Assembly: GCA_026387355.1 (NCBI GenBank)
Contig: JAPLLW010000011.1
Location: 9,504-73,503 of the forward strand
Direction: 5' to 3'
DNA length: 64,000 bases
Origin: Candidatus Omnitrophota bacterium
Lineage (GTDB): Bacteria; Omnitrophota; Gorgyraeia; Gygaellales; Profunditerraquicolaceae
Part shown: piece by piece, positions 7,264 to 43,542 of the stretch
How positions within the stretch are numbered: position 1 is the stretch's first letter
Layout of the letters: each line of letters starts with the position of its first letter
Made by a program: the position numbers and the translations under genes
Notes under the pieces: model-generated
What the model saw: the letters and a program-made list of their open reading frames with translations, nothing else
Told to the model about the DNA's origin: nothing
Databases searched by the model: none

Positions 7264-7335
7264 TGCCGAGGAGAAGAATCGAACTTCCCACGCCGGCCTT
7301 TTCAGGGCCGCGCTCTACCACTGAGCTACCTCGGC
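7264..7335 (-). tRNA. tRNA-Phe (anticodon GAA)
   Basis: Hand-folded cloverleaf. Acceptor GCCGAGG/CCUCGGC, D-arm GCUC…GAGC, anticodon stem CGGCC/GGCCG with loop CUGAAAA, T-arm GGAAG-UUCGAUU-CUUCU, discriminator A. No encoded CCA. Confidence 0.85.
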
Positions 7336-7425: not shown

Positions 7426-7920
7426 TTATTTATAATTCTTGGCAGTTAAGAACCATTCTATTAACTGCTTTAATGTATTGTTAACTTCAGGGCTTAAGCC
7501 CTCACCAAAAGAAATAACCTTTGGCTGAATTGCCAAAACCATTATATCAACCTTAAAACTGTTTTTCAAATAACTGATGGCAAGCGATATGGACGCATCG
7601 TGGGTCGAAAAAAAGTTTACTGTTTGAATATCTTCTCCTTCGTACATCCTGAATTCACCGGGAGAGCCTCCAAAATCCACTGCGTCAATTATTAAAACAG
7701 TATCCGGCTTATCTTTTATAATCTTTCCAAGATAATTCTCAGGGCTTGAACTTGAGTCATAGACAATATAAGGCACCTTACCTTCTATAGCCGAAGCCAG
7801 CATTGATCCAATGCCATCGTCGCTACATAAGGTATTTCCTATACCTAAAACCAAAACTTTGCCGGTAAGATGTAACTTGAGATGCTCTAAGGCGCCTAAA
7901 TGTTCAGAACTTTTTTCCAT
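7426..7920 (-). CDS. hydrogenase maturation endopeptidase (HycI/HyaD family)
   Basis: GIGNTLCSDDGIG and DAVDFGG motifs. 164 aa. Confidence 0.75.
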   Translation of the reverse strand: MEKSSEHLGALEHLKLHLTGKVLVLGIGNTLCSDDGIGSMLASAIEGKVPYIVYDSSSSPENYLGKIIKDKPDTVLIIDAVDFGGSPGEFRMYEGEDIQTVNFFSTHDASISLAISYLKNSFKVDIMVLAIQPKVISFGEGLSPEVNNTLKQLIEWFLTAKNYK

Positions 7921-8732: not shown

Positions 8733-10748
8733 CTATTCGTTTATAACCTTCCAGATTTTGTCCAGATTCTTACGCGCTTCTTCTTCTCCTCTACGGGCAA
8801 ACTCTGAGGCCCTGTGCAATTCAAGCCAATATAGCCCTGAAGTATCAGGATGCAAAACTATATCCGCAAGCAACCCCTCTTTTTGCGCTACCTCAGACTG
8901 AAGTATTTCAAAAGTACTAAATATAATATCCAGTATATTAGTTTTAAATAGATCTTTAAAGTGCCTGCCTAAATTAAACCAGTTCTTCTTTTTTATCTCT
9001 CCGGAGATATTTACCTTTATCCCCTGTTTTATCTTTTCGTATTGATTCAATATATCCTGTCGCGAAGGCGTAACATTAACCGCGATAATCTTTTTTACCC
9101 CCATCTTTAGAAGCGGTTCGGTGGGAAGCGGATTAGTTACCCCGCCATCAAAGAGAAATTCTTCTTTAAATTTAAAAGGCGCAAAAACTCCGGGCATAGA
9201 ACAGCTCGCCATAATTGCATCTGCCAATAAACCTTTATCGAGAACGCGAGGCTCTTTCCTTTTAACATCAGTAGCAATAATCTTAAGCGGAAGGCGTACA
9301 TCATAAAAAGTCTTATCTCCTAAATGCTTCTTCAAAAACCCATGCAGTTTATTGCCTTTAAGAAATCCGATATGCGGAAATGTCAGGTCAATCAAACCCC
9401 AGATATGCTTTGGCTCCTTAAATTCCTTCATAATCTCCAGAATCTCGGAACTTGACTTGCCAATCGCCCAAAGACTAGCAATTAGCGCCCCCATACTGGA
9501 ACCGGCAATAATATCTATCGGGATATTCTCTTCTTCAATTACCTTTAATACGCCCAGATGACAAAAACCATAACCTACCCCTACTCCCAAGACTAAACCT
9601 ACCATACATTCGCCCACATAGCGGGAGATTCTTCTTACCGCTCTGGTATACTCGCTATCCGGCTCATCCAAGACCAACCGGTCAGTAAGACCAGGCTTAA
9701 TCATAGGTAAAGTGGCAAAAATATTCCTATCTAAGATCTTAGCCTGTTCGATAGGAGTAACTTTGGAGAATTTATATTCATTGATAATAATCTTAATTTT
9801 ATCGACTTGAAAATCAAACTCTTTCTTTAACCTAAGAGTAAGATTATGCGTTTTCTCAAGCTCTGGCTCATCCGGACCACTCAATAAATGTATAAGGTCG
9901 GACTGATTCAAGATACTAAATATATTCTTATCTAGAAGCGATGGTAGGTCTAAGATCAGGTAGTGATAGTCATTTACTAACCAACTTAAGATACCCACCA
10001 GACTTCTTACGCACTGATCATCGAGCGGATTATAATAAAAACAAAGCACGTCAATCCCAAAACTGCTATTTAAGATAAAATCTTTGGCTAAGCTTGAATT
10101 CCCGGAATCCTTACTAGAAAGATCAAATACTTTCTCATTACTAATCCCCAGCCTCCCCGGTAAACTATGCTTTTTATTAGCAGAGAGTATGTCCAGTATG
10201 ATTACTGACTTACGTGTCTCATTTTTAAGGCTTAAGGCAAGATTCAAAGCATAAATTGTTTTTCCTGCCTGAGAATATGAACTAAAAACAGAGATAAACG
10301 TACTTACAAAAATTGTTTTTTGATGGACGTCTTTTCTTTTAAGCCTGCGCGATAGGGTCTTACTTAAATCAATAGCTAAACGTGGGATTTTATTAATAAT
10401 AAAATCAAAATCTTCTTTACTAATAACCAGAATCAAACAATCATTAGTTGCCTGGGCAGTAACCGAATGCGTCTCGTTTGTAAGAAGCGAGATTATTCCG
10501 AAATATTTACCTCGGTGCAGATATTCCAGTATCTTCTGTGTGCCCTGGTTATCCTTAGTGTAAATAACCACTCTTCCTTGGGCCAAACAATAAAAACCGC
10601 TAGGGGAAGATCCTTCTTGATAAATTATATCCCCTTTTTTCAATGAAATAACGCTTGAGCGCTGCATGATAATTTTGCGCTGATGGATAGATAAATCCGC
10701 AAAGATAGGAAATTCCTGGATAACTAAACTCTTATTGATTAATTCCAT
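8733..10748 (-). CDS. three-domain protein: N-terminal cNMP-binding-like (CAP effector) domain, degenerate ParA/MinD-like middle domain, C-terminal patatin-like phospholipase
   Basis: aa 1-140: CAP_ED-like (FGIISLL…HSVTAQA). Middle: ParA-like (SQAGKT, HYLILDLPSLLD). C-terminus: patatin GxSxG (AGSSMGA) and DGG (FLFDGGV) catalytic dyad motifs. Confidence 0.75.
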   Translation of the reverse strand: MELINKSLVIQEFPIFADLSIHQRKIIMQRSSVISLKKGDIIYQEGSSPSGFYCLAQGRVVIYTKDNQGTQKILEYLHRGKYFGIISLLTNETHSVTAQATNDCLILVISKEDFDFIINKIPRLAIDLSKTLSRRLKRKDVHQKTIFVSTFISVFSSYSQAGKTIYALNLALSLKNETRKSVIILDILSANKKHSLPGRLGISNEKVFDLSSKDSGNSSLAKDFILNSSFGIDVLCFYYNPLDDQCVRSLVGILSWLVNDYHYLILDLPSLLDKNIFSILNQSDLIHLLSGPDEPELEKTHNLTLRLKKEFDFQVDKIKIIINEYKFSKVTPIEQAKILDRNIFATLPMIKPGLTDRLVLDEPDSEYTRAVRRISRYVGECMVGLVLGVGVGYGFCHLGVLKVIEEENIPIDIIAGSSMGALIASLWAIGKSSSEILEIMKEFKEPKHIWGLIDLTFPHIGFLKGNKLHGFLKKHLGDKTFYDVRLPLKIIATDVKRKEPRVLDKGLLADAIMASCSMPGVFAPFKFKEEFLFDGGVTNPLPTEPLLKMGVKKIIAVNVTPSRQDILNQYEKIKQGIKVNISGEIKKKNWFNLGRHFKDLFKTNILDIIFSTFEILQSEVAQKEGLLADIVLHPDTSGLYWLELHRASEFARRGEEEARKNLDKIWKVINE

Positions 10749-12586: not shown

Positions 12587-13783
12587 CTAAATCAACCTGA
12601 TCTTAGGATACAATACATTTACGCTTAAGAAGAATCCTAAGCAGATAATCCCGCCTAAGAAAACCGCAAAAGAAACACCTAATGATTGAGCAATAATACC
12701 AGCAAATAAATTTCCAAAAGGCATAAGGCCGGCAAAGGTAATCATAAATACACTCATTACCCTACCTCTGAATCTATCCTCTACCTTAGTCTGTAATAAA
12801 GTGTTCACTAAAGCCAAGGCGATAACACTTGAGCCTCCTACAAACGCCAGTGCCACCAGTGATAAAGAGTATATTTTTGACAATGAAAAGGTAATCAAGG
12901 AGACAGAGAATAATATCGAAGAGAACGAAAGTAATTTCCCCTTATATTTGAAATCGCCTAAACGTGCTAAGACCAACGCCCCTATAAGAGCGCCGGCACC
13001 TGCACTAGACATAAGTACACCTAGACCTTTGACACCAACCTTTAATATATCTTTAGCAAATATAGGCATAAGAACAACGTGCGCTACGCCAAAAAGACTA
13101 ACCACTCCTATCATCGAGATCAGAGCCAGGATTAAACGATTATTCTTTATAAAAATAAGCCCTTCTATAGAATCTTTGAATGCACTGCCAGCTAAATTAT
13201 CCTGCGGCTTGTCATATATCTTGATTGTCCAAAGCGCAAGTAGCACTGCAAAGAAACTTATCCCATTTATATAGAAACATCCGCTCATGCCAATACTTGA
13301 AATCAAAATACCGCCAAGCGCAGGCCCGATAATGCGCGAAGAATTAAAAGATACGGAATTTAAAGCAATAGCGTTGGTCAAATGTTCTTTCCCGGTTAAT
13401 TCTACAACTACCGCCTGGCGACTCGGGGCATCAAAAGCCATCACAATACCGTTTAAAACAGCAATAACCATAATTTGCATAGTTGTAATTAATTTTAACT
13501 GGGTAAGAATAGCCAGGGCAAATGCCAAGACCATGAAAGCAAATTGAGTAGCAATAAGAATACTTCTTTTGTTGAGACGGTCAGCTAAAACACCCCCGAA
13601 TAAAGAAAGGAAGAGTATGGGGATAGAACTTAAGAATCCTACTACGCCTAATAAAAAAGCAGAATTAGTCAGCTGAAAAACAAGCCAACTAAGGGAAACC
13701 TGCTGGATCCATGTCCCCACCAGCGAAACAAACATACCAAACCAATAAACCCTGAAATCTTTTACCTTGAGTGATGAGAACAT
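12587..13783 (-). CDS. MFS transporter
   Basis: 12 predicted TM helices and a typical MFS loop motif (GVLADRLNKR). Confidence 0.8.
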   Translation of the reverse strand: MFSSLKVKDFRVYWFGMFVSLVGTWIQQVSLSWLVFQLTNSAFLLGVVGFLSSIPILFLSLFGGVLADRLNKRSILIATQFAFMVLAFALAILTQLKLITTMQIMVIAVLNGIVMAFDAPSRQAVVVELTGKEHLTNAIALNSVSFNSSRIIGPALGGILISSIGMSGCFYINGISFFAVLLALWTIKIYDKPQDNLAGSAFKDSIEGLIFIKNNRLILALISMIGVVSLFGVAHVVLMPIFAKDILKVGVKGLGVLMSSAGAGALIGALVLARLGDFKYKGKLLSFSSILFSVSLITFSLSKIYSLSLVALAFVGGSSVIALALVNTLLQTKVEDRFRGRVMSVFMITFAGLMPFGNLFAGIIAQSLGVSFAVFLGGIICLGFFLSVNVLYPKIRLI

Positions 13784-13784
13784 C

Positions 13785-14399
13785 TTAAGACTTAATTACT
13801 GCTTCTCGACGACAACCCGGGCAGAGAATCTTTGTGCGCGTTGAACGATTAATTGTTGCGGATCTACTACCGGGAGAGGCCCTCTCTTTTAAACTTAAAC
13901 CTATACTCCTTAAATAGAAAAGTAGAAGCGAGGCATTAGAAAAAGTTAGCGGACCTAATTTATTGGCTACCCATGCGTATTGATCATAGGGAATAATCGG
14001 CACACCGCAACATTCACAAACAATAAATTCCTTTTCTATTGACTGCTTAAGTTCTTGTCTCTTTTCCGTAGTAGCATAATCAAACTCCTGAGAAAGAATT
14101 ATGCCTTTGGTAGTCAAACAATTAGCCTGGCACTGCCCGCAAGATACACAAATATCCCAATGTACGGTAAGTCTTCTTTTGACCAAAGTCCCTTTTATCT
14201 CATCGATAAATTCAATTGCATTCGCAGGGCATACCTGGGCACAAGCAGCACATCCTACGCAACCATCTTGATAAAAATACGGTCGACCGCGAAAACGCTC
14301 ATATGGCTTATGGGGCTTGACCGGGAAGTTGTTGGTGTAGGGCCTACTAAATAGTGACTTTAACGCCTGCTTTAATTCTCTTACTTTAGGTCTTCGCAT
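13785..14399 (-). CDS. group-4 hydrogenase 2x[4Fe-4S] subunit (NuoI/EchF-like)
   Basis: Two CxxCxxCxxxCP motifs (CVGCAACAQVCP, CVSCGQCQANCL). Confidence 0.7.
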   Translation of the reverse strand: MRRPKVRELKQALKSLFSRPYTNNFPVKPHKPYERFRGRPYFYQDGCVGCAACAQVCPANAIEFIDEIKGTLVKRRLTVHWDICVSCGQCQANCLTTKGIILSQEFDYATTEKRQELKQSIEKEFIVCECCGVPIIPYDQYAWVANKLGPLTFSNASLLLFYLRSIGLSLKERASPGSRSATINRSTRTKILCPGCRREAVIKS

Positions 14400-16128
14400 T
14401 TTTATTCTTACGCTTAAAAATCCATTTTAAAGTGAGAATATTATAAATATCTAAATCTTCCGACTTAAGGAAACGATAATAAATGCGCAGTAACGGCAGG
14501 TTTTCGATAGTTTTATAAAATTCTGTTGCCGGAAAAAGCGGACGGCTATACCCGGATTCTCCACCGACAAAAAAAGTATCTTCTCTAACGCCCTTTTTAT
14601 TCATTGAATTCCAAATTATAAAACCTATAACTAACGCCATAATTATAAATACTGAAACAAAAATACTATTCCAGCTACCGCTATAATCTAATATAAACGA
14701 AAAAGACGGAGCAATGAATTTTCCTACAAAATAATTTGCAAATACCCCAAGCATAACGCAAAAAGCAGCTAAAGTTAGCAAAGGTACAAGCATCTCCCAG
14801 GAAGCCTCACCGATTTTTTCCTTTGACTTAAGATTGTCCTGACCTAAGAAGATAGCATGGATAAACTTGATGAAACTAGCCAAGGTAAGCGCACTACCAA
14901 ACATAGCGGCAACTAAAGCAAACATGTAAATAAATCTTAAGCATATGTTTGTTGTAGCTAATAGACCTAGAAAAGCGCCTTGATAAAGCATCCATTTTGA
15001 AGCAAATCCATTTAACGGAGGAATACCAGAGATAGAAAGAGAGAAAACTATTGCCGCTAGAAAAGTAAGCGGCATATAACGTGCTAAACCTCCCAGTCGA
15101 TCTAATTCAAATGTATTGGCCTTCTTCTCTACTGCTCCACCTACTAGAAATAACCCGCTCTTATATATGGAATTATTAATCATATGAAATATAGCGCCGA
15201 TAATGCCGATTGGGGTTGCGGTACCAATCCCTAAGACCATATAGCCCACCTGGCTTATAGCATGATAGGAGAGCAGCTTCCTCAAATCATGTTGAATCAA
15301 AGCCATCATTACTGCAAAAATAATCGTAAGGCTACCGGTAATAAGCAAGAGGCCGATTATAAAATTGTTCATCACAAAAAAATCCAGGCATATGCGGGAG
15401 AGAATATATATACCAAGCAGCTTATCCAGTGAAGCAGGCAATATCGCCATTACCGTAGCCGGAGCACTCTGGCTTGCCGTAGGAATCCAGGTATGCAGCG
15501 GGCCTGAACCTGCCTTTGCCAATGCCCCTATAAGCATAAGCACGATCGCTACCCAACAGACCGGCCGATTCAAAATCATCGTCGATCCGGTGAACATACT
15601 ATTTGATCCGGTAAAGGAAGTATAAATAATAGCGCCCGCAATAAAACAGAGGTAAGAAAATCCTAGAATTACTCCCGCTTTCTTAGCGCTAAACTTTGAA
15701 TTTAAATTAAGCAACATATAAAGGATAAAGATCGAACCACCCCAGGATAATGTAAAGACAATAAAATCCGTAGCCAGGATTTCTAAATTAGTAAAAACCA
15801 TAAGCAGGATTAACCAGGAGAAATACCCGCCTTTACCGTTAGAATAATCTTTGGAAAAAAGACAAATTAGGAAACCGAAAAGATTAGCAAAGACTAAGAC
15901 CAGACGAGAGAGCTTATCCAAAGTAAGAAATACGGTGAACCCGGGGAAAATCTGCTTGCTCCAGGCAAAATGCGGGCTTAGCGATATGATTATGGCGTAG
16001 ATTAAACTGAATAATAAAACTCCTAGGCTTATGTTTTTTCTTAGATTATCGAGGCGCCCTAAAAAGAAAAAACATATCCCGGATAAAAGCGGTAAAGTTA
16101 GCAGGAAAAATAAACTGATATTCGTCAT
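14386..16128 (-). CDS. complex-I antiporter-like membrane subunit (NuoL/MrpA/EchA-like)
   Basis: About 16 TM helices. Conserved GPLHTWIPTA…PATVMA motif. Confidence 0.8.
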   Translation of the reverse strand: MTNISLFFLLTLPLLSGICFFFLGRLDNLRKNISLGVLLFSLIYAIIISLSPHFAWSKQIFPGFTVFLTLDKLSRLVLVFANLFGFLICLFSKDYSNGKGGYFSWLILLMVFTNLEILATDFIVFTLSWGGSIFILYMLLNLNSKFSAKKAGVILGFSYLCFIAGAIIYTSFTGSNSMFTGSTMILNRPVCWVAIVLMLIGALAKAGSGPLHTWIPTASQSAPATVMAILPASLDKLLGIYILSRICLDFFVMNNFIIGLLLITGSLTIIFAVMMALIQHDLRKLLSYHAISQVGYMVLGIGTATPIGIIGAIFHMINNSIYKSGLFLVGGAVEKKANTFELDRLGGLARYMPLTFLAAIVFSLSISGIPPLNGFASKWMLYQGAFLGLLATTNICLRFIYMFALVAAMFGSALTLASFIKFIHAIFLGQDNLKSKEKIGEASWEMLVPLLTLAAFCVMLGVFANYFVGKFIAPSFSFILDYSGSWNSIFVSVFIIMALVIGFIIWNSMNKKGVREDTFFVGGESGYSRPLFPATEFYKTIENLPLLRIYYRFLKSEDLDIYNILTLKWIFKRKNKNAKT

Positions 16129-16742
16129 TTTATCTTTAGTAAGCTCTTAGCGATTTTCTTAATGTGATAATAAACCGCGGCTGTAAAATCAAGCATATTC
16201 AAATACATATTGCAACTCATAGGAGTACATAGACCGGCAATAAGCCTCTGATTATGGTGATTACGGTATTTATCAACCATACTATCAATATGCTCTTCGT
16301 TCCTTAAAACCTCTTGCACTAAAGCGGGGTTATCTTTTTCTAAGACAAAAACCACCTCTTCTAAGGCAACTTTTGTTTTATTGTAAAGTTCTTTATATTC
16401 TTCAACAGCGACCTCATCAAATAAAAGCCTCTCTTCTATCTTGATTTGAATCCTCTCAAGAATATCTTTACAATAATCTCCGATTAACTCAAAATCAGCT
16501 GCAATATCCGCATAAACTAAGATTCTCATTTTTTCTTCAGTAGAATAAGCGGTGCGACCTAAATCAATAATGTTTTTGTTAATATCTTCTTCTAGGGCAT
16601 TCAACCTAGCTTCGTCTTCCAGGGCCTTAGTAATAAGCTCCACGTCGTGTTCAATAAAAGCGTCATAGGTGAGCTTCCACATAGACAATGAGCTTTTTGC
16701 CATCTGAGTTACTTTTTCCTTAATACTATTTAGATCTACCAT
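16125..16742 (-). CDS. PhoU-domain-like all-helical protein embedded in the hydrogenase operon
   Basis: Two-repeat acidic helical protein resembling PhoU/DUF47 (…EDEARLNALEEDINKNIIDLGR… repeated). Translationally overlapped on both sides. Confidence 0.4.
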   Translation of the reverse strand: MVDLNSIKEKVTQMAKSSLSMWKLTYDAFIEHDVELITKALEDEARLNALEEDINKNIIDLGRTAYSTEEKMRILVYADIAADFELIGDYCKDILERIQIKIEERLLFDEVAVEEYKELYNKTKVALEEVVFVLEKDNPALVQEVLRNEEHIDSMVDKYRNHHNQRLIAGLCTPMSCNMYLNMLDFTAAVYYHIKKIAKSLLKIK

Positions 16743-17934
16743 AGTAGCTCTCCTTTAGTTTAAGGGTTTTATCCTGCGACAATTTAATCAAATCCCAACC
16801 ATTCATTATTTTAGAATTATCCGATTTATTAATCACCGCCACCCTCTCCGTACAGCAATAACAAGGATCGACCGCTGCTAGAGTAAGAGTAGCGTCGGAG
16901 ATCGTACCTCCCACAGCAGCTACCTTATCGGACGCTACATTCATAAAGCTTGGGGAACGGATCTTATGCCTTAACGGCCGGTTAGTTCCGTCACTTACTA
17001 TATAATGGAAACATTCACCTCTGGGAGCCTCCACCCTACCGATACCCTCACCAACTGGGATATCCTTAATGTCAGCGTCAATTATTCCGGATTTAGGCAT
17101 CTTATCTAAACATTGCCTGATAAGGCTTATGCTTTCATATAACTCTAAAATCCTTACTACGGTTTTACAAAATATATCTCCGTCTTTTTCTATAATTACC
17201 TTCCAGTCAAGCCGGTCGCTTGAGCCATATGGTTCATCCCGACGTATATCAATATTCACACCTGAAGCACGCGCAGTCGGGCCTACAACCGCCCATTCAA
17301 TTGCCTGCTGCCTAGTTAATCTCCCAACATCCTTTAAGCGCATCTTTATTATCGGGTCATCCATAATCGCGCCATGAAATAAATCTATCCCCGGCAATAA
17401 TTCATCCAGCATCTTCTTAATCTGCGGGATATCATCGTCTTTTATATCACGCCTAACTCCTCCGACCTTAAACATCGCGTAATTATTACGGTTACCAGTG
17501 ACCATCTCAAACATATCCAAAACCGGCTCGCGGAACTTCCAGGCCCACATCCAGACAGTATTATAACCGATAAAGTGCCCCACCAACCCCAGCCACAAAA
17601 GATGACTGTGAATCCTCTGCAATTCATCTATAATCGTACGGATGAAAAGTGATTTTTCAGGTACAATATTAAATTCTCCGCCCAATATATTTTCTACTGC
17701 CAAAACATAAGCATATGGATGGCTGGACGAACAAATACCGCAGATGCGCTCAACTAAAAACGGAACCTGATCAAAATGCTTAGACTCAGAGAGTTTCTCT
17801 ATGCCGCGGTGGTTATAGCCAATGATAATATCAATATCAACCACCTTCTCGCCCTCGACATAAAGCTGGAAAAACTCCGGTTCTTCCTGTAACGGATGAT
17901 ACGGGCCTATAGGAACAATGATTTTATGACTCAT
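16726..17934 (-). CDS. [NiFe] hydrogenase large subunit, group 4 (NuoD/EchE-like)
   Basis: L1 motif RICGICSSSH (RxCGxCxxxH) and L2 motif DPCYCC (DPCxxC). Confidence 0.85.
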   Translation of the reverse strand: MSHKIIVPIGPYHPLQEEPEFFQLYVEGEKVVDIDIIIGYNHRGIEKLSESKHFDQVPFLVERICGICSSSHPYAYVLAVENILGGEFNIVPEKSLFIRTIIDELQRIHSHLLWLGLVGHFIGYNTVWMWAWKFREPVLDMFEMVTGNRNNYAMFKVGGVRRDIKDDDIPQIKKMLDELLPGIDLFHGAIMDDPIIKMRLKDVGRLTRQQAIEWAVVGPTARASGVNIDIRRDEPYGSSDRLDWKVIIEKDGDIFCKTVVRILELYESISLIRQCLDKMPKSGIIDADIKDIPVGEGIGRVEAPRGECFHYIVSDGTNRPLRHKIRSPSFMNVASDKVAAVGGTISDATLTLAAVDPCYCCTERVAVINKSDNSKIMNGWDLIKLSQDKTLKLKESYYGRSK

Positions 17935-18359
17935 TTTTTATTCCTCATAGGGTAGTCGCCTTGCGGCCATTCATCAGCGAGAAGCAATTTCTTTAAATTC
18001 GGATGGCCTATAAAATTAATTCCGAACATCTCCCAAATCTCACGCTCGATCCATTCTCCTCCCGGGAATAACGGTGAGATAGAAGCAACCTCGGGCTTTA
18101 GCTTATCATCTAACAAAAGACGCACTGTATAAATCTCGCCAGATGGATCATTGCTAAAATGATAGAGTAATTCAAAACCATGCGGAAGCTCTACAGCTGA
18201 AGCAGTAATAAATCTTAACTCTAGATTCTTAAGCAGGATTTCGGTCGTCTTAAGAATGTCTTTTTTATCCAGACTAAAATATATTCTCTTAGTAGAGACC
18301 TCTCTCCAATCTTTAATCTTGTCCTGCAGCTTTTCTTTAATTCTATCCCTCATCTCCAT
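17931..18359 (-). CDS. hydrogenase NuoC/EchD-like subunit
   Basis: 30-kDa-subunit-like fold. Position between the small and large subunits. Confidence 0.65.
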   Translation of the reverse strand: MEMRDRIKEKLQDKIKDWREVSTKRIYFSLDKKDILKTTEILLKNLELRFITASAVELPHGFELLYHFSNDPSGEIYTVRLLLDDKLKPEVASISPLFPGGEWIEREIWEMFGINFIGHPNLKKLLLADEWPQGDYPMRNKK

Positions 18360-18363
18360 AAGA

Positions 18364-18822
18364 CTATTTGCCTTTCTTCATTTTATTCACTAACTGCAGA
18401 ATGCCTGAAATAATAGCTTCGGGTTTAGGAGGACAACCCGGGATATATAAATCGACCGGCAGGATCTTATCCAACGGCTCACCGACATTATAGCTGTCTC
18501 TAAACATGTGCTGCGAACAGGCGCAGATACCACAAGCAACCACCACGCACGGCTTAGCTGTCTGCTCGTAAACCTTCTTCATCCTGACAATTGCCTTCTT
18601 ATTCATTGCGCCGGTAATTAAGAGCGCATCCGCATGCCGGACCGAACCGATAAGCTGAATACCAAAACGCTCAATATCATGCCTAGGAGTAAAACAATCC
18701 AATATCTCGATATCACAGTTATTGCAGGAACCAACACTCATATGAAATACCCAGATGGATTTAGTTAGGGCCTTACTTCTAATATCCATATTATAAACCG
18801 AATGAGGCAAGGATAACCGCAA
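18364..18822 (-). CDS. [NiFe] hydrogenase small subunit (NuoB/EchC-like)
   Basis: GSCNNC, CGICA and PGCPP cluster-binding motifs. Confidence 0.8.
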   Translation of the reverse strand: MRLSLPHSVYNMDIRSKALTKSIWVFHMSVGSCNNCDIEILDCFTPRHDIERFGIQLIGSVRHADALLITGAMNKKAIVRMKKVYEQTAKPCVVVACGICACSQHMFRDSYNVGEPLDKILPVDLYIPGCPPKPEAIISGILQLVNKMKKGK

Positions 18823-19702
18823 TCCCCGCCAACACCGTCGGAATCCTCCAAAAGAATTTTAACGCCTGGTCAATACGCAGACGCGGATTAGTATTTTTGA
18901 TCAATATAATTATTAATAATAACATTAGATATTTAGCAATTATAAAAATCGGAGTTAAATCACGACCTAAAAACAGAACAATAATAAAGACTGGAAGCAC
19001 ATAAAGCATAACCGCTTTGGTTAATTTAAAGATCGCTAGAGGTAAGCCCGAATATTCGATGAGCGTACCACCCATAATCTCCTGGTCTGCCTCGGCAATA
19101 TCAAAAAGCCCGATTCCTAACTTTGCTTGTATGCAGAATATAGCAACAATAAAAGCTAGGGCTCCGGATAGGCTAAAAGCAATTGAACCATATAGTAACT
19201 GATATTGAATAACTTGACCAATCTGGAGCGCGCCTTTACACTTAAGCACTACCGCGATCACGCAAAGAATTAACGGCAGCTCATAAGCTAGAATCAATTT
19301 CATCTCTCTAGACGCACCCACCGAAGCTAGCGGGTTTCTTGAAGACGATGCCCCGATAATTACCGCAATCGCCGGAATAATTAATAAATATAAAAAGACG
19401 ATTAAATCTCCGGAGAAACTATCAAGCGGTGAAATTATACTCCTACCTAAACTAGCGGTTACCAAAACTACACTTGCCAAACCCAGATATGGAGATAACA
19501 AGAAAACTAGTTTTGAGCCCTCAGGGACAATAGTCTCTTTTCCGAGCAACTTTAAAATATCCATAAAGTTTTGATACCACGGCGGGCCAACCCTCCATTG
19601 CAGACGCGCAGTGAGCTTACGGTCTAACCAACCGGCTAAAAGCCCGACTGTTAAGCTAAATAAAAAACCCGGAAATATTAACAGATAGAATATAGTCTTC
19701 AT
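18791..19702 (-). CDS. hydrogenase membrane subunit (NuoH/EchB/HyfC-like)
   Basis: 8-TM protein with a NuoH-like profile. Confidence 0.7.
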   Translation of the reverse strand: MKTIFYLLIFPGFLFSLTVGLLAGWLDRKLTARLQWRVGPPWYQNFMDILKLLGKETIVPEGSKLVFLLSPYLGLASVVLVTASLGRSIISPLDSFSGDLIVFLYLLIIPAIAVIIGASSSRNPLASVGASREMKLILAYELPLILCVIAVVLKCKGALQIGQVIQYQLLYGSIAFSLSGALAFIVAIFCIQAKLGIGLFDIAEADQEIMGGTLIEYSGLPLAIFKLTKAVMLYVLPVFIIVLFLGRDLTPIFIIAKYLMLLLIIILIKNTNPRLRIDQALKFFWRIPTVLAGIAVILASFGL

Positions 19703-20193
19703 TTCTTCTTAGGTAATTGAACATCCTCTTTTGACCACCTACAAGTATGCACAGCCAAGTTCTCTCCCACAAAATAAATGTCCTGCTCCAGATTCTCTTC
19801 TACTTCTTTTATCTGAACGGCTTTCTCTGGGCAGAGAGAAACGCATTTAGGTAATTCAACTGATTTACCAATACAAAAATCGCATTTTGAATCCAAGTAC
19901 GGGATAAAATCCTGAAAGATAACCCCAAATGGACAGGCGATGGTGCAAGATTTACAGCTTGTGCAGCGCATCTTGTATCGCTTAAGGTGACCGTCGCTAG
20001 CTCGCTCAAGGGCATTGTGATAACAGGAATTTACGCAAGGCGCCTCCTCGCAATGCCGGCAGATAGTAGCAAAGGTAGCGTACTCTCGCAAAGAAGTAAT
20101 CCCGTTATTCTGCGGATGATAAAAATAATCGCAGACAATTGAACATTCTTTGCATTTATTACAGATGTCTAAATCAATAAATAAACGTTTCAT
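19699..20193 (-). CDS. polyferredoxin, 4x[4Fe-4S] (HycB/CooF-like)
   Basis: Four Cys clusters (CNKCKEC…C, CRHCEEAPC, CTSCKSCTIACP, CDFCIGK…CVSLCP). Confidence 0.75.
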   Translation of the reverse strand: MKRLFIDLDICNKCKECSIVCDYFYHPQNNGITSLREYATFATICRHCEEAPCVNSCYHNALERASDGHLKRYKMRCTSCKSCTIACPFGVIFQDFIPYLDSKCDFCIGKSVELPKCVSLCPEKAVQIKEVEENLEQDIYFVGENLAVHTCRWSKEDVQLPKKK

Positions 20194-20213
20194 TTATTAA
20201 GCTTTAAGCTTTC

Positions 20214-20245
20214 AGCTATCAGCTAACGGCTGACGGCTGATAGCT
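20214..20245 (-). other. intra-operon RNA hairpin (10-bp perfect stem AGCTATCAGC/GCTGATAGCT), 1 nt after the stop of 20247-21065
   Basis: Seen directly. No U-run follows, so it is not a terminator. Adjacent duplicated AAGCTT and CAGCCGT motifs. Confidence 0.4.
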
Positions 20246-20246
20246 A

Positions 20247-21065
20247 TTAGTCCCAAATATCCCGAATATCTTTTAATTGCTCATAAGTAAAAACCGGACC
20301 ATCTTTACAGGCATAGTATTTCCCGATACGGCAATGCCCGCATTTACCTAAACCGCAAGACATGCTCTTCTCCATTGATAGATAGATATCCTGCGGATTA
20401 AAACCTAAATCCAATAATTTTAAAGTAACAAATTTCATCATGATCGGCGGACCGCAAACTATTGCTACTGCCTTAGCAGAGACTACCGGAACTTCCCCCA
20501 ATACTGTTGTCACTAAACCTACATTCCCCTGCCAGCTTGGGTCTCCTATATCAACACTCGCTAAAACATCAACCTTGTCCTTCTTGGCCCATTCGGGAAG
20601 TAGTGCTTTATAAACTATATCGCTTGGCGTACGCGCACCATAGCGCAAAACCACTTTGTTATACTGGTCTATTCTAGAAAAAAGACTAAACAAAAGAGAA
20701 CGTAGTGGTGCTAATCCCACACCACCACCAATTATTAATATATCTCTGCCTTTAAATTTATCGAGAGGATAACCTAAGCCATATGGCCCCCGGATACCGA
20801 GAATATCGTTTTTTTGCATAGTATGCAATTTAGAGGTGACTTCTCCTGCCTTCATTATAGTAAGCTCTAGTAAATCTTTTATTCCGGGATCAGAAGAGGG
20901 TGTAAAAGGAGCCTCCCCTACGCCCGGCACAGTCAACTCTATAAATTGTCCGGTAGCAAAGCTAAACGGAATAGCCGGCCTTAATTTAAAGGTCTTTATC
21001 GTGGAGGTTTCTTCAATTACCTCTTCAATGACTGCCTTGATTGGCTGGTATATATTTTTCTTCAA
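20247..21065 (-). CDS. FAD/NAD(P)-binding oxidoreductase subunit with C-terminal [2Fe-2S] (PyrK/HydG/AsrB-like)
   Basis: FNR-like fold. C-terminal CGLGKCGHC…C cluster motif. Confidence 0.75.
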   Translation of the reverse strand: MKKNIYQPIKAVIEEVIEETSTIKTFKLRPAIPFSFATGQFIELTVPGVGEAPFTPSSDPGIKDLLELTIMKAGEVTSKLHTMQKNDILGIRGPYGLGYPLDKFKGRDILIIGGGVGLAPLRSLLFSLFSRIDQYNKVVLRYGARTPSDIVYKALLPEWAKKDKVDVLASVDIGDPSWQGNVGLVTTVLGEVPVVSAKAVAIVCGPPIMMKFVTLKLLDLGFNPQDIYLSMEKSMSCGLGKCGHCRIGKYYACKDGPVFTYEQLKDIRDIWD

Positions 21066-22168
21066 CCCACAACCTCCGGCTGCACTTGACGAGATTCATG
21101 TAATATCTTTAAGATGCGGCGTATATCTATTTTCCCAGGACATACATCAATGCATCTTCCGCAACCACAACAAGCCTGAATCCCTAAATTAGAGATGAAA
21201 AAATCAAATTTCTTTAAGAAACGGTTACGCAGCCTCATATAGCGCAACTTTAAAGGATTAGCGCCTCCGGCAACTTTAGTAAAATTTTTAAGCAGACAAC
21301 CATCCCAAAGACGCAGGCGCCTGGCATTACCTGATGACGAATCGTCAGATAATAAGAAACAATGGCAGGTATCGCAGATAAAAACGCAACCGTTACATTC
21401 TACACAGGTGCGCGATTCGTTCTGCCAAACTGTTGAATTGTGCCCTGATACAACTATATCCTGTAATTTTTCTTTCTTGGGAATCTGGTATTGAGTAAGG
21501 TAATCATCTAGCCTACGAACTACTGACTCTCTTTTGGATGACCGTCCTGAAAGTTGACCTAGGGTAGCCGGAACTAATACATCTTTTAAGGAAAATGCAA
21601 TCGAGCTTGCCTTTTGCGAAGCTACATCAACGAGATAGCCGTTAGTTAACGGAGAGAAATTAAAATCATAGCCTTCGGTAGGAAAAGGGTTAATATCAAA
21701 AGCCCTGCAGAAACAAACATTCTTGAACTGAGGACAATCGCTGGCAATAATCAGGGTAGTATCTCTTCTTGCCTTATAAGCAGCGTCGACTTCGCTTCCT
21801 CCTAAAAAGACAAAATCCTGTATCTTTAACGCAAATATATCACAATTCTTTACCCCGCATAACGCAAGAGGCCTCTCCTTCTTGCCTTTTGAATCTTCGC
21901 CTTCGAAGAAAACAGAAACCTCTTCCTTATACTGAGTAAAAAAAGACCGGATTGGCTCGGTAGAACGGTAATCGCTAAAAACTATTTCTTCTTTTTTAAC
22001 TTGAGAGAACTTCTTTATGGAGAAATCATCCGTAGGGACGATTGGCTTACAATCACAGTTTAATTTTAACGCAGATTTGGCTTTGACGGGAACGAATAGC
22101 TCGTATTCCTGGTTGAGCCGTTCATAAAATTTGAGGATATCCTCGTTTTTTAGAAAATATGTTTCCAT
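21062..22168 (-). CDS. iron-sulfur subunit (sulfhydrogenase beta HydB / AsrA-like)
   Basis: CVECNGCVFIC and CCGCGRCIDVCP 4Fe-4S motifs. Paired with the PyrK-like subunit. Confidence 0.6.
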   Translation of the reverse strand: METYFLKNEDILKFYERLNQEYELFVPVKAKSALKLNCDCKPIVPTDDFSIKKFSQVKKEEIVFSDYRSTEPIRSFFTQYKEEVSVFFEGEDSKGKKERPLALCGVKNCDIFALKIQDFVFLGGSEVDAAYKARRDTTLIIASDCPQFKNVCFCRAFDINPFPTEGYDFNFSPLTNGYLVDVASQKASSIAFSLKDVLVPATLGQLSGRSSKRESVVRRLDDYLTQYQIPKKEKLQDIVVSGHNSTVWQNESRTCVECNGCVFICDTCHCFLLSDDSSSGNARRLRLWDGCLLKNFTKVAGGANPLKLRYMRLRNRFLKKFDFFISNLGIQACCGCGRCIDVCPGKIDIRRILKILHESRQVQPEVVG

Positions 22169-22249
22169 TGGAAAAAAGTTTTAAAAGATTGATCGGAAGG
22201 AGAAAATAAGATAACATACTTAGCGCTTACTGTCCAGACAAATCTAAAA

Positions 22250-30645: not shown

Positions 30646-31605
30646 TTACCTGCAGTGGACTACATCGCCGGTCATAACCTTCTGGGTTAAACCGGAATCT
30701 TTTCTTATTAATAATCCTCCGTCTTTATCAATATCTACTGCCTCTCCCTCAATATGTTTACTCTGGCAATAAACCTTAACCCTTCGGCCTAAGGTAAGAT
30801 TATTCTGGCGCCATTTATCAATAATAATAGAGCTACCTTTCTTGGCTAAAAGTAAATAATTTGCTTCGAGCCTGCGTAGTATCTCCTGCAACAACTCCAG
30901 ACGGCTTACCTCTTCTTTCTTCTGCTCCCTCAAAGATGTAGCGCCGCTAATCAAAGACTTCTTATCATTATTCACGTTTATGCCGATACCGATATTTACA
31001 AAATTAACTTTATCAGTTTCAGCGCTTATCTCTGTAAGTATCCCGCCGAGCTTCTTACTGTGTACTAAGATATCATTCGGCCATTTTATCTGCGCATCGA
31101 TACCTGCAACTTCTTTTACTGCTTCGCAAATACTAATTGCAGCCATGAATGTTAATATCGATGCCTGCGCAGGCAAAAGATCGGGCCGCAGTATCAAAGA
31201 AAAATAAAGCCCCTTGTATTTCGGAGAAGACCAGATTCTCCCTAATCTACCCCTGCCTTTATTTTGCGCCTCGGCTAAAATCATTGTGCCTTCACTTGCG
31301 CCTTTTATCCCTAATTGCATAGCCATATCCATGGTAGAATTTAGAGAATCGAAATAAAGAATTTTTCTACCTAAAACCTTTGTATCCAAGCCATTCTTAA
31401 CCTCAAAATCAAACAACCTATCGGGACTAGATTCCAGACGATATCCGAGATGGGGAACTGCGGCGATATTGTAACCTAGATCCTTTAGCTCCTGGATATG
31501 CTTCCAGAGCGCCTGACGGCTTATTTTAAAATGGCTGCTTATCTCTTCGCCGGATATATAATCTTTTTCCCTTTTTAATAGTTCGATTATCTTTTCATCG
31601 ATCAT
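30646..31605 (-). CDS. birA: bifunctional biotin-protein ligase / biotin operon repressor
   Basis: N-terminal HTH (ISGEEISSHFKISRQALWKHIQELKDLGY) plus ligase motif GRGRLGRIWSSP. Confidence 0.85.
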   Translation of the reverse strand: MIDEKIIELLKREKDYISGEEISSHFKISRQALWKHIQELKDLGYNIAAVPHLGYRLESSPDRLFDFEVKNGLDTKVLGRKILYFDSLNSTMDMAMQLGIKGASEGTMILAEAQNKGRGRLGRIWSSPKYKGLYFSLILRPDLLPAQASILTFMAAISICEAVKEVAGIDAQIKWPNDILVHSKKLGGILTEISAETDKVNFVNIGIGINVNNDKKSLISGATSLREQKKEEVSRLELLQEILRRLEANYLLLAKKGSSIIIDKWRQNNLTLGRRVKVYCQSKHIEGEAVDIDKDGGLLIRKDSGLTQKVMTGDVVHCR

Positions 31606-34599: not shown

Positions 34600-34605
34600 T
34601 AATTA

Positions 34606-35013: not shown

Positions 35014-35014
35014 A

Positions 35015-39970: not shown

Positions 39971-39989
39971 TTAATAGTTATCTTGTCGT

Positions 39990-40030
39990 GGGACAGTCCC
40001 CTTATGAACCTTCGCATATAGGACAGTCCC
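39990..40030. promoter_or_regulatory. two copies of the palindrome GGGACAGTCCC / GGACAGTCC, 30 bp apart, upstream of trxB
   Basis: Seen directly. Candidate operator. Confidence 0.35.
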
Positions 40031-40045
40031 TACTGGCGACGCTGG

Positions 40046-40291: not shown

Positions 40292-40320
40292 CCTTTCTAA
40301 TAAAGCTATTCTTAATATTA

Positions 40321-41965: not shown

Positions 41966-41973
41966 AAATCCTC

Positions 41974-43530: not shown

Positions 43531-43542
43531 AAACTTACACCT

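Follow-up and report, generated by a model that had tools for sequence, protein, structure and literature searches.

Which electron donor feeds the hydrogenase encoded at this locus of an uncultured Omnitrophota bacterium, and from which family of membrane-bound complexes does the enzyme come? The characterised MBH receives electrons from ferredoxin through MbhN (PMC7684303). The Omnitrophota enzymes have been classed as group 4g, with ferredoxin as the assumed donor (Williams 2021, Seymour 2023; PMC8542988, PMC10066038). An asrA/asrB/cooF module was seen earlier with such hydrogenases (Matheus Carnevali et al. 2019, PMC6349859) and was termed "enigmatic" in the earlier literature, so the combination is already known from genomes and is not new. 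In this study, we analysed a stretch of 64,000 nucleotides (the window), whose open reading frames were assigned to domains using Pfam and NCBIfam. All features described below lie on the minus strand.

A ten-gene operon for a membrane-bound [NiFe] hydrogenase

Ten co-oriented, mostly overlapping genes occupy window positions 13785-22168 and make up an operon that encodes a membrane-bound [NiFe] hydrogenase. From 5' to 3', they encode HydB/AsrA-like, HydG/AsrB-like and CooF/HycB-like proteins, the NuoH-, NuoB-, NuoC- and NuoD-like subunits, a PhoU-fold protein, an antiporter-like subunit and a HycF-like NuoI. The spacing from the first to the last gene is -4, 53, -4, -32, 4, -4, -17, -4 and -14 nt, which fits one transcription unit. 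The NuoD-PhoU-antiporter-NuoI junctions were confirmed by a second assembly, as Logan assembly L088 (SRR20698638) was 100% identical to window positions 14267-17455. A candidate promoter (22208-22236; TGGACA-17-TATCTT with an extended TG) lies in the 81 nt that separate yqeY from the operon's first gene; it is weak, and the scan gave no more sites than expected by chance.

The six core subunits named in the initial annotation (NuoL-, NuoH-, NuoB-, NuoC-, NuoD- and NuoI-like) were all recovered by their domain assignments. The NuoH/MbhM/HycD-like membrane anchor (18791-19702, 303 aa) matched Pfam NADHdh with E=4e-59. The NuoB/MbhJ-like small subunit (18364-18822) matched Oxidored_q6. Its true start is probably the ATG at 18789, giving 141 aa, rather than the TTG at 18822, because the orthologues have 137-141 aa. 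Its proximal-cluster ligands C33, C36, C100 and C130 were invariant. The NuoC/MbhK-like subunit (17931-18359, 142 aa) matched Complex1_30kDa, and the NuoD/MbhL-like large subunit (16726-17934, 402 aa) matched Complex1_49kDa and NiFeSe_Hases. The L1 and L2 motifs of the large subunit, RICGICSSSH and DPCYCCTER, aligned with the NiFe ligands of Pyrococcus furiosus MbhL, and E18 aligned with the catalytic MbhL E21. C65, C68, C358 and C361 were invariant in 84 sequences. The best PDB match was MbhL (6cfw_L, 6.7e-85), followed by HycE (7z0s_E, 1.5e-75), and a 38-aa C-terminal extension past R364 aligned with the HycE extension. These results agree with the earlier assignment to group-4-type membrane-bound [NiFe] hydrogenases.

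A HycI-type maturation endopeptidase (7426-7920, 164 aa; Pfam HycI), also recognised earlier, is encoded 5.9 kb downstream of the operon. It scored 109.3 bits against the NCBIfam hydrogenase maturation protease model (cut-off 47.45) and 102.8 bits against hycI, under the cut-off of 119.1. The gene is a conserved neighbour of the hydrogenase locus in relatives, and its product would mature the large subunit. As proposed before, it is the only maturation gene seen here: no hyp gene was found among the scanned window ORFs of at least 110 aa.

The locus derives from an Mbh-Mrp ancestor by loss of the Mrp module

The locus had been described as Ech-type with a non-canonical gene order. The order B-C-D-E-PhoU-A-F was confirmed; the Ech descent was not. 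A syntenic hydrogenase locus was found in 80 Omnitrophota species representatives, and the Mrp-linked Mbh/Mbs-like family is near-universal at this position in the phylum. The orthologous and syntenic loci L001, L002, L005 and L006 run from NuoD through an antiporter subunit, MbhD/E, MnhB, a NuoK-like protein, a second antiporter subunit, MnhE, MrpF and MrpG to NuoI. In a GTDB survey, 46 loci were complete at the 3' end, and 43 of these carried the seven-gene Mrp (Na+/H+ antiporter) module. Because of this gene order, the Mrp-bearing majority and the best solved relatives, MbhL and MbhH of 6CFW, the window locus is placed within the Mbh-Mrp (MBH/MBS-like) family and is not Ech by descent. The B-C-D-E-PhoU-A-F order results from loss of the Mrp module, which is absent from the window locus and from four relatives. 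No Mrp gene was found anywhere in the 64-kb window.

The single antiporter-like subunit (14386-16128, 580 aa; Pfam Proton_antipo_M) is MbhH/MbsH'/HycC-like, with PDB matches to 6cfw_H (3.9e-38) and 6u8y_X (2.2e-33). Its identity to the first antiporter subunit in the nearest relative, L006, is just 42%. It keeps TM15 and the FxGGE loop and is without the terminal TM16. A conserved C-terminal helix (LHxGVL..YL.W..G), the counterpart of the helix HL/TMH16 clamp in MbsH' (PMC7684303), was missing in all five Mrp-less loci and only in those. The end points of the truncation varied among these lineages, which suggests repeated adaptive trimming. The loss of the Mrp module at the window locus is real and adapted.

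The trimmed operon could also be a functionless remnant, in decay since Mrp was deleted. The prevalence of Mrp in complete loci, the missing TM16, the absence of hyp genes nearby and the replacement of two conserved channel lysines of the antiporter-like subunit in the Mrp-less relative L007 would fit such decay. However, none of the ten ORFs is disrupted, no cofactor ligand has been lost, and the Mrp-less form has been kept in five lineages whose antiporter subunits share 47-74% identity, with intact ORFs free of frameshifts. The lineage-specific end points again point to adaptation, and two-subunit membrane arms are functional in formate hydrogenlyase (FHL; 10.1101/2022.03.21.484881). We consider a remnant very unlikely. 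The canonical TM5 glutamate is absent from the antiporter-like subunit, with Gly in 74 of 74 family members; together with the loss of TM16 and the lysine replacements in L007, this means that the trimmed form may not pump ions.

A PhoU-fold soluble protein (16125-16742, 205 aa; Pfam PhoU) is encoded between the large-subunit and antiporter-like genes. Its AF2 model had a pLDDT of 92 and, in Foldseek, a TM score of 0.90 to P. aeruginosa PhoU (4q25). The gene occupied the same position in 37 of 75 loci, 48 columns were invariant among 36 homologues, and only 328 database matches were obtained. It is an accessory gene specific to Omnitrophota, and its product is probably a cytoplasmic accessory protein or regulator. 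We came across no account in the literature of a form that has PhoU and lacks Mrp.

An AsrA-AsrB-CooF module belongs to the hydrogenase

Three genes precede the core. The first encodes a HydB/AsrA-like iron-sulfur subunit (21062-22168, 368 aa; Pfam Fer4_22), with NCBIfam scores of 152.7 bits for ShyB, 122.2 for HydB and 108.3 for AsrA, all far under the equivalog cut-offs. Its top PDB match was the beta subunit of P. furiosus sulfhydrogenase I (9nez_B, E=8e-27), and 15 Cys residues were invariant in 62 orthologues including that of Kosmotoga. The second encodes a HydG/AsrB-like FAD/NAD(P)-binding flavoprotein with a C-terminal [2Fe-2S] site (20247-21065, 272 aa; FAD_binding_6, NAD_binding_1 and DHODB_Fe-S_bind), whose top match was the gamma subunit of the same enzyme (9nez_C, E=1.9e-54). 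Its GE.PFTPSS, GGGVGLAP and CG.GKCGHC...C motifs for FAD, NAD(P) and 2Fe-2S were invariant in 65 sequences. These matches bear out the HydB/HydG likeness noted in the initial annotation. The third encodes a CooF/HycB-like polyferredoxin (19699-20193, 164 aa; Fer4_11) with 16 Cys in four [4Fe-4S] motifs; its top matches were HDCR HycB4 (7qv7_B) and FHL HycB (7z0s_B).

The initial annotation had placed these genes in one operon with the core, and had named as counter-evidence a separate transcription unit, or Asr subunits of a sulfite reductase with an AsrC of their own elsewhere. The module lay 5' of the core in all 54 loci whose upstream sequence was long enough and in the cultured Kosmotoga olearia, which carries the same locus gene for gene (Kole_0561-0575); this adjacency spans divergence to 32-55% identity. 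In K. olearia, RNA-seq assigns Kole_0568-0575 to one operon that groups the module with the core, and the cluster is weakly expressed on pyruvate (RPKM about 40-200). Identity of AsrB and CooF to the window proteins correlated with that of NuoD at r=0.88, and the value for NuoC and NuoI was 0.87. Since the module tracks NuoD as tightly as core subunits do, it would belong to the complex. Neither the window nor the related loci inspected yielded an AsrC or siroheme (NIR_SIR) protein. These comparisons support the HydB/HydG-like genes being part of the hydrogenase, and speak against both a unit of their own and an Asr-type sulfite reductase.

The nearest solved and curated relatives of the module are sulfhydrogenase beta/gamma and AsrA/AsrB, and sulfhydrogenase reduces S0 in vitro according to Ma et al. 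1993, as cited in PMC8542988. The complex might thus be a membrane-bound sulfhydrogenase or sulfur reductase, in which H2 or NAD(P)H serves the HydB-like subunit as reductant for polysulfide, S0 or some other acceptor; a variant of this idea is an Asr-like sulfite reductase. The missing AsrC, the low ShyB, HydB and AsrA scores, and the NiFe ligands and proton-reduction Glu, which are intact here unlike in the sulfur-reducing MBS, make this highly improbable.

FHL-like wiring and NAD(P)H as a possible electron donor

The NuoI/HycF-like 2x[4Fe-4S] subunit (13785-14399, 204 aa) scored 81 bits as an NCBIfam formate hydrogenlyase iron-sulfur subunit, and its top full-length PDB match was HycF (7z0s_F). 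Its C-terminal CxxC...CPxC quartet (C128, C131, C193 and C196) was invariant in 53 of 53 sequences. In FHL, the HycF-type extension contacts HycB (10.1101/2022.03.21.484881).

The enzyme could instead be a ferredoxin-dependent, H2-evolving Mbh, with the HydB/HydG/CooF-like proteins forming a separate co-transcribed soluble enzyme, such as an NAD(P)H:ferredoxin or NAD(P)H:polysulfide oxidoreductase. This would follow the precedent of MBH and the treatment of the 4g enzymes described above, and the 53-nt gap between the AsrB-like and CooF-like genes is consistent with it. However, the CooF-like and NuoH-like genes share 4 nt where one stops and the other starts, the module stays beside the core and co-diverges with it, and the NuoI-like subunit has a Cys-quartet extension of the kind that docks HycB in FHL. 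We regard this alternative as rather unlikely, although a ferredoxin site may be present on the CooF-like or HycF-like subunit.

Electron confurcation or bifurcation, in which NAD(P)H and reduced ferredoxin jointly make H2 evolution from NAD(P)H feasible, was raised in the initial annotation. A low-potential co-donor is thermodynamically favoured, and the 15 conserved Cys of the HydB-like subunit and up to four clusters of the CooF-like protein could provide a second entry point. However, the sole flavin-binding protein detectable in the operon is of the FNR/PyrK type, and bifurcating flavoproteins of the GltD/NfnB, HydB(NuoF) or HdrA type are missing from both the operon and related loci. Such a mechanism appears quite improbable. 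The FNR-type flavoprotein and the FHL-like wiring make coupling to NAD(P)H, or bifurcation, reasonable, and a hydrogenase that draws on NAD(P)H in place of ferredoxin is plausible.

A proposed ion-coupled NAD(P)H/H2 reaction

Our preferred reading, with a probability of about 0.6, is a trimmed Mbh/Mbs-like hydrogenase with a three-protein NAD(P)H input module that catalyses an ion-coupled NAD(P)H/H2 reaction. It starts from the observed gene content, motifs, synteny, Mrp-module loss and co-truncation. From these, we infer that NAD(P)H is the substrate, along with the route of the electrons, the ion coupling and the direction. Electrons would enter through the HydG/AsrB-like FAD/[2Fe-2S] protein, which would bind NAD(P)H, and the HydB/AsrA-like and CooF/HycB-like proteins, with no site for free ferredoxin. 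They would pass from NAD(P)H to FAD, the 2Fe-2S cluster, the HydB-like clusters and the CooF-like clusters, and then via the HycF-like NuoI with its two clusters to the NuoB-like proximal cluster and the NiFe site. By analogy with E. coli FHL, the Cys-quartet extension of NuoI would dock the polyferredoxin. The proposed overall equation is NAD(P)H + H+ <-> NAD(P)+ + H2, with coupled ion transport through the NuoH-like and antiporter-like subunits.

Under standard conditions, making H2 from NAD(P)H costs ~18 kJ/mol (E0' -320 vs -414 mV). Therefore, either very low H2 or an ion gradient would pull the enzyme, or it would work as an energy-conserving H2:NAD(P)+ oxidoreductase, and direction and coupling are speculative.

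Comparison with known systems

In MBS, the terminal helix clamps the next subunit, whereas this helix is gone from the trimmed antiporter-like subunit described here. The NuoI-like subunit also differs from that of MBH, being of the HycF type and not the short 139-aa MbhN type. Like Ech and FHL, the trimmed complex keeps a comparable two-subunit membrane arm. Its HydBG/CooF/HycF wiring would resemble that of formate hydrogenlyase, with formate dehydrogenase (FdhF) replaced by an NAD(P)H flavoprotein, a sulfhydrogenase-type diaphorase.

A ten-gene hydrogenase operon with an intact catalytic core

The operon at window 13785-22168 contains ten ORFs, all on the minus strand. The first three genes encode a HydB/AsrA-like Fer4_22 protein of 368 aa, a HydG/AsrB-like FAD/NAD(P)/2Fe-2S protein of 272 aa, and a CooF/HycB-like polyferredoxin of 164 aa with 16 Cys residues (window 19699-20193). 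These are followed by the NuoH-like, NuoB-like, and NuoC-like subunits (genes 4-6), the NuoD-like [NiFe] large subunit (gene 7, 402 aa), a PhoU-domain protein (gene 8, 205 aa), the sole Proton_antipo_M subunit of the operon (gene 9, 580 aa, window 14386-16128, minus strand), and a NuoI-like 2x[4Fe-4S] protein (gene 10, 204 aa). Pfam matches to the NuoB-, NuoC-, NuoI-, NuoH-, and NuoL-like proteins complete the partner set of a membrane-bound [NiFe] enzyme. Apart from one 53-nt gap, consecutive genes overlap or are at most 4 nt apart, and a Logan contig was 100% identical over the NuoD-PhoU-antiporter-NuoI junctions. In a promoter/terminator scan, site counts were not above chance, and the one candidate promoter was weak. 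As the ORFs, family assignments, motifs, HycI-type gene, and Logan junctions all agree, the operon was described correctly in every component by the initial annotation. An MFS_3/MFS_1 transporter gene (window 12587-13783, minus strand) begins 1 nt past the NuoI-like stop and may be co-transcribed; such a gene comes after the operon in just under 30 related loci of Omnitrophota.

The large subunit carries both hydrogenase motifs, L1 (RxCGxCxxxH, here RICGICSSSH) and L2 (DPCxxCxxR, here DPCYCCTER), which were matched by alignment to the NiFe ligands of P. furiosus MbhL and E. coli HycE. The ligand cysteines C65, C68, C358, and C361 showed no variation among 84 sequences, and E18 aligned opposite the catalytic E21 of MbhL. 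C33, C36, C100, and C130 of the NuoB-like small subunit were also invariant, in keeping with a single proximal [4Fe-4S] cluster. The 38-residue tail past R364 of the large subunit aligned with the HycE extension that is cut off by HycI, and a HycI-type protease gene was identified at 7426-7920 by a family profile match. No hyp genes were found among the scanned ORFs of the 64-kb window. An AIRS-family protein at 31602-32636 was ruled out as HypE, as it scored 97 bits in hypE against a cut-off of 251.6.

This AIRS-family protein, with weak HypE/ThiL/SelD similarity, lies beside NifS and a 268-aa protein without assignment at window 31602-36229 (minus strand). The same cluster holds a COG1900 (HcyBio) and NIL-ferredoxin pair for homocysteine sulfur incorporation, and is probably a sulfur-transfer pathway rather than one of hydrogenase maturation. 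Between the operon and the HycI gene lies a gene for a cyclic-nucleotide-binding patatin-like phospholipase of 671 aa (window 8733-10748, minus strand), which is kept in the Omnitrophota loci with gene lists extending that far.

Elsewhere in the window, an oxidative/nitrosative-stress cluster at 39041-46462 (minus strand) encodes thioredoxin-reductase-like, PNPOx-like, flavodiiron, FNR-like reductase, ferritin, and hybrid-cluster proteins, together with an unusual fusion of peroxiredoxin and pterin-4a-carbinolamine dehydratase (42679-43530). At 46689-49238 (minus strand), a 248-aa protein with a weak partial RnfD/NqrB match (residues 22-123) adjoins a 115-aa ORF without family, an Rrf2 regulator, and a 279-aa Fer4 protein; a complete Rnf operon is not present. 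A 680-aa protein at 60538-62580 (minus strand) is a fusion of apolipoprotein N-acyltransferase (LNT_N and CN_hydrolase) with a C-terminal M23 peptidase domain. All family-assigned genes across window 1-64000 are on the minus strand except three, and GC skew is negative throughout, which is consistent with a single replichore of a small genome with about 39% GC. The window has one tRNA-Phe (7264-7335).

The operon descends from Mbh-Mrp hydrogenases

The best 120 large-subunit relatives listed (80-100% identical) were all metagenomic, and the named ones were nearly all from Candidatus Omnitrophica/Omnitrophota. By its gene context, the locus is orthologous and syntenic throughout the phylum, with PfkB and YqeY upstream and an MFS transporter, a peptidoglycan-binding protein, a GH1 enzyme, the cNMP-patatin protein, and HycI downstream. 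In the usual operon, which is longer, NuoD is followed by an antiporter-like subunit, an MbhD/E fusion, MnhB, a NuoK-like protein, a second antiporter subunit (MrpD-like), MnhE, MrpF, MrpG, and last the NuoI-like subunit. The usual layout of the family is thus Mbh-Mrp (MBH/MBS-like), not Ech. We then annotated 80 species-representative loci from GTDB genomes by tblastn. Individual loci are given L-numbers below.

The Mrp module, the seven genes between the first antiporter subunit and the NuoI-like gene, was present in 43 of the 46 loci with a complete 3' end and missing in L007, L023, and L034. The window and L004, whose large subunit is 89% identical to that of the window, are further cases. 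A tblastn search of the 64-kb window with eight proteins of L006 (H1, MbhD/E, MnhB, NuoK-like, H2, MnhE, MrpF, and MrpG) found no Mrp genes, the one match being the antiporter-like gene. Orthologous loci do have the module, and the large subunit of the window is 65-90% identical to those of Mrp-bearing syntenic loci. The best solved matches of the window subunits were MbhL and MbhH. The catalytic core is orthologous to Mbh by descent. This family placement draws on PDB matches, synteny, and the group 4g assignments in the literature.

The initial annotation had called the operon Ech-type with a non-canonical order. Its composition is indeed Ech-like, with six core subunits and NuoL- and NuoH-like proteins as the only membrane subunits. 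However, the order NuoH-, NuoB-, NuoC-, NuoD-like, PhoU, NuoL-like, NuoI-like is not echABCDEF, and 43 of the 46 complete related loci, as well as that of Kosmotoga, are Mbh-Mrp. The order arose because the seven Mrp genes were removed from the family order, and the Ech assignment was not upheld. Since the nearest relatives are already 74-89% identical in protein, synonymous sites are saturated.

Loss of the Mrp module is accompanied by changes in the antiporter-like subunit

The antiporter-like subunit of the window was 42% identical to the first antiporter subunit of L006, the closest relative by core genes. In a neighbour-joining tree without bootstrap support, it belonged to a distinct "long" clade; eight species representatives whose 3' end is complete have both a subunit of this clade and the Mrp module. 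The Mrp-less sequences occupied three separate positions in this clade, namely (L007,(window,L004)), L023, and L034. From this topology, the Mrp module would have been lost independently three times or more, and the lineage of the window would have had its membrane arm replaced.

The strongest case for a genuine, adapted loss came from the alignment of the C-terminal ends. All Mrp-bearing first antiporter subunits, and that of Kosmotoga, end in a conserved LHxGVL..YL.W..G, the final transmembrane helix. The five Mrp-less proteins end or diverge shortly ahead of this motif at differing points, and TM16 is absent from the window subunit, but TM15 and the FxGGE loop are retained in all five. In MBS, MbsH' clamps the adjacent antiporter subunit with helix HL and TMH16, whereas TMH15 and its loop link the pump to the peripheral arm (PMC7684303). 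The clamp was therefore lost along with its partner, and the coupling loop was retained. A two-protein membrane arm, HycC and HycD, is functional in E. coli FHL (10.1101/2022.03.21.484881).

The canonical TM5 glutamate (WE motif) was Gly (WG, residue 130 in the window) in all 74 first antiporter subunits of the family. We rejected this change as a sign of decay, since it is family-wide and Kosmotoga olearia also has the FWG motif. The TM7, TM11, and TM12 lysines of the first antiporter subunits are retained. The antiporter-like subunit of the Mrp-less locus L007 (PCRK01000058.1) has replaced two channel lysines that are invariant elsewhere (K205E and K323Q); this lineage may have changed or lost ion translocation.

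A HydB/HydG/CooF-like module diverges together with the hydrogenase core

The initial annotation left open that the HydB- and HydG-like genes form a separate transcription unit, or that they are Asr sulfite-reductase subunits with their own AsrC. Wherever a locus extended 4.7 kb or more upstream of NuoD (54 of 54), it carried AsrA-AsrB-CooF-NuoH-NuoB-NuoC, and the gene after the asrB-like gene was CooF-like in every case. Across loci, identity to the window correlated with that of NuoD for AsrB and CooF (r=0.88), comparable to NuoC (0.87), NuoI (0.87), NuoH (0.80), and NuoB (0.80). No AsrC/NIR_SIR siroheme protein was found in the scanned window ORFs or in the gene lists of L001, L002, L004, L005, and L087, the Kosmotoga locus. 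Given this conserved adjacency, co-divergence with the core, and lack of an AsrC-like siroheme protein, neither alternative holds, and the module is part of the hydrogenase operon.

The pair is of the sulfhydrogenase beta/gamma type, a multi-cluster HydB-like protein with a FAD/NAD(P)/2Fe-2S HydG-like protein. The best PDB matches were the beta and gamma subunits of P. furiosus sulfhydrogenase I (9nez_B, 8e-27; 9nez_C, 1.9e-54). The scores were under every NCBIfam equivalog cut-off tested (ShyB, HydB, and AsrA; HydG, ShyC, and AsrB), and the proteins are therefore homologues, not orthologues, of the sulfhydrogenase subunits. Across 65 sequences, the flavoprotein showed no variation in its FAD motif (GE.PFTPSS), its NAD(P) motif (GGGVGLAP), or its 2Fe-2S cysteines, and 15 Cys of the HydB-like protein were likewise invariant in 62 sequences. 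A second flavoprotein for electron bifurcation was not found.

The best matches of the CooF-like protein were the HycB-type connectors HDCR HycB4 and FHL HycB. Its C11 and C17, in the first [4Fe-4S] motif, vary across the family while the remaining 14 Cys are conserved, so some orthologues may have three clusters instead of four. In L004, the gene caller had split the CooF gene into 51- and 74-aa fragments; a break was rejected, as tblastn showed an intact 164-aa ORF of 84% identity. The NuoI-like subunit is of the HycF type, HycF being its best full-length solved match, and its C-terminal CxxC...CPxC quartet was invariant in all 53 family members. [quoted passage not shown] P. furiosus MbhN, a direct ferredoxin acceptor, has only 139 aa and therefore no room for such an extension. 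The HycB-type polyferredoxin, the HycF-type subunit with its C-terminal Cys4 site, and the HycI-type processing features of the large subunit together constitute FHL-type wiring. NuoC and NuoD are separate genes in the window, not fused as in HycE, and no molybdopterin protein was present among the scanned window ORFs as an FdhF partner.

A PhoU-fold protein in the hydrogenase operon

The AF2 model of the PhoU-domain protein (pLDDT 92) superposed on PhoU structures with a TM of 0.90 to 4q25 and has the two-repeat six-helix-bundle fold. The Pfam PhoU score was 67 bits. The protein is not an orthologue of the Pst regulator, because it scored 46.6 in TIGR02135 phoU_full against a cut-off of 130. 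The family had only 328 database matches; the best 120 of the 328 were about 205 aa long, and the organism-named ones among them were from Omnitrophota. Many homologues carry the JGI label "phosphate:Na+ symporter", and conservation is strong, with 48 invariant columns. The gene was found in 37 of 75 loci, overlaps both flanking genes, and is missing from Kosmotoga. Our guess is that it assists or regulates the membrane module from the cytoplasm.

NAD(P)H as the likely electron donor

All characterised members of the PyrK/HydG/AsrB/NfnA flavoprotein family use pyridine nucleotides, to our knowledge, and NAD(P)H is therefore favoured as the likely substrate. By analogy with FHL, electrons would pass from NAD(P)H through FAD, 2Fe-2S, the HydB-like, CooF-like, and HycF-like proteins, and the proximal cluster of the NuoB-like subunit to NiFe. 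Under standard conditions, forming H2 from NAD(P)H costs about 18 kJ/mol, so that the complex would operate at very low H2, use the ion gradient, or be an ion-pumping H2:NAD(P)+ oxidoreductase. Ferredoxin is a possible electron input of the window enzyme, and genome reconstructions at present take Mbh as ferredoxin-dependent (PMC8542988, PMC10066038). Together with this possibility, the TM5 Glu-to-Gly change, the missing TM16, and the two replaced lysines of L007 call for caution on the mechanism with NAD(P)H.

With a probability of about one in three (0.35), the family would be an ion-motive, complex-I-like NAD(P)H:H+ (H2:NAD(P)+) oxidoreductase, in which the HydBG pair serves as the N-module via a HycB/HycF-type relay and the NAD(P)H-H2 gap of about 100 mV is conserved or consumed. 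In the same reading, the window would hold a natural minimal version, with the Mrp Na+/H+ module and clamp helix dispensable and the PhoU-fold protein as a new accessory or regulatory subunit. The initial interpretation is supported in part.

We know of no characterised pyridine-nucleotide-coupled energy-converting hydrogenase of this kind. If the HydBG/CooF module feeds the membrane hydrogenase, the enzyme would run on pyridine nucleotides rather than ferredoxin, formate, or CO, and models of redox balance and energy conservation would change for Omnitrophota, Kosmotoga, Saganbacteria, and Elusimicrobia. The main value of the finding is that the NAD(P)H hypothesis is directly testable now, because the same operon is present in the cultured Kosmotoga olearia. 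The trimmed form, in which apparently repeated Mrp loss is matched by loss of the clamp helix, provides a natural example of the modular evolution that has been proposed in the complex I superfamily, and its ten genes are a smaller target for heterologous expression.

Comparison with known systems

The association of asrA/asrB/cooF genes with a hydrogenase is already known, though unexplained, as similar modules were noted by Matheus Carnevali et al. 2019 (PMC6349859) and Meheust et al. (10.1101/765248). The former described the genes as a putative oxidoreductase module of an "enigmatic" group 4 [NiFe] hydrogenase in Saganbacteria RX5A, a Mrp-Mbh enzyme with its closest relatives in Omnitrophica and Zixibacteria, and the latter named a "Mbh-Mrp-oxidoreductase type" in Elusimicrobia. 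The Saganbacteria locus has a molybdopterin (FdhH-like) oxidoreductase and Mrp subunits, whereas the window has neither. Omnitrophota Mbh enzymes have been assigned to group 4g as Mrp-linked, with ferredoxin dependence assumed (Williams 2021, Seymour 2023; PMC8542988, PMC10066038). Literature searches returned no description of the Mrp-less, PhoU-bearing form, the co-truncated clamp, or the HycF-type docking feature, and no paper on an NAD(P)H-linked Mbh, the cryo-EM structure of sulfhydrogenase I, or a Velamenicoccus Mrp hydrogenase.

In a search of 1.84 billion cluster representatives followed by cluster look-ups, Kosmotoga olearia TBF 19.5.1 was the nearest named relative outside Omnitrophota, with a large subunit of 402 aa that was about 55% identical. 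Kosmotoga hydrogenases are reportedly listed by Schut and colleagues in FEMS Microbiol Rev in 2012. The locus (Kole_0561-Kole_0575, CP001634.1, about 608-624 kb) is an annotated cluster known from genes and expression tables. It shares the gene order from the HydB-like, HydG-like, and CooF-like genes through NuoH, NuoB, NuoC, NuoD, and the antiporter-like gene to the HycF-like NuoI and then HycI, as well as the TM5 change and the NuoI Cys quartet. Unlike the window, it has TM16 and the full Mrp module (MbhD/E, MnhB, NuoK-like, second antiporter subunit, MnhE, MrpF, MrpG), lacks the PhoU gene, and has hypF, hypC, and hypD directly downstream of HycI. RNA-seq operon tables place Kole_0568-0575, from the large subunit up through the HydB-like gene, in one transcription unit, with low expression on pyruvate (RPKM about 40-200) (PMC5674127 supplement).

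Among solved structures, P. furiosus MBH (6CFW) is the best relative, through MbhL for the large subunit (6.7e-85) and MbhH for the antiporter-like subunit; MbsH' of MBS (6U8Y) aligned to the latter over residues 8-507. The NiFe ligands and catalytic Glu of MBH are conserved in the window, and the membrane arm of its full-length relatives is MBS-like, comprising two antiporter-like subunits and Mrp parts. In contrast, every Mrp subunit and TM16 are absent from the window, and the NiFe site is absent from MBS. Both P. furiosus complexes take ferredoxin electrons via the short MbhN/MbsN and have no HydBG/CooF module, unlike the window operon.

The operon resembles E. coli FHL-1 (7Z0S) in its two-subunit membrane arm (HycD and HycC in FHL), in the HycB-type polyferredoxin that feeds a HycF bearing a Cys quartet at its C-terminus, and in the C-terminal extension of the large subunit, which is cut by HycI in FHL. 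However, FHL-1 receives electrons from FdhF, a Mo/Se formate dehydrogenase, in place of a HydBG-type flavoprotein pair; its HycE is a NuoC-NuoD fusion, and HycC keeps TM16 and the TM5 Glu. The window subunits are nearer to Mbh than to Hyc. With P. furiosus sulfhydrogenase I (group 3b, 9NEZ), the closest solved homologue of the pair, the FAD/NAD(P)/2Fe-2S and Fe-S motifs are held in common, although the pair is far under the HydB, HydG, ShyB, and ShyC equivalog cut-offs. The beta/gamma subunits serve a soluble group 3b enzyme, whereas the window pair is on a membrane-bound group 4 enzyme via an extra CooF-like connector.

Ech (echABCDEF, group 4e) and the window operon are functional look-alikes, each with six core subunits and only two membrane proteins. 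The Ech large subunit is not known to have a C-terminal extension or to need HycI. The two differ in gene order and in descent, all near relatives of the window operon being Mrp-linked, and Ech has neither the HydBG/CooF module nor the PhoU protein, both of which are present in the window operon.
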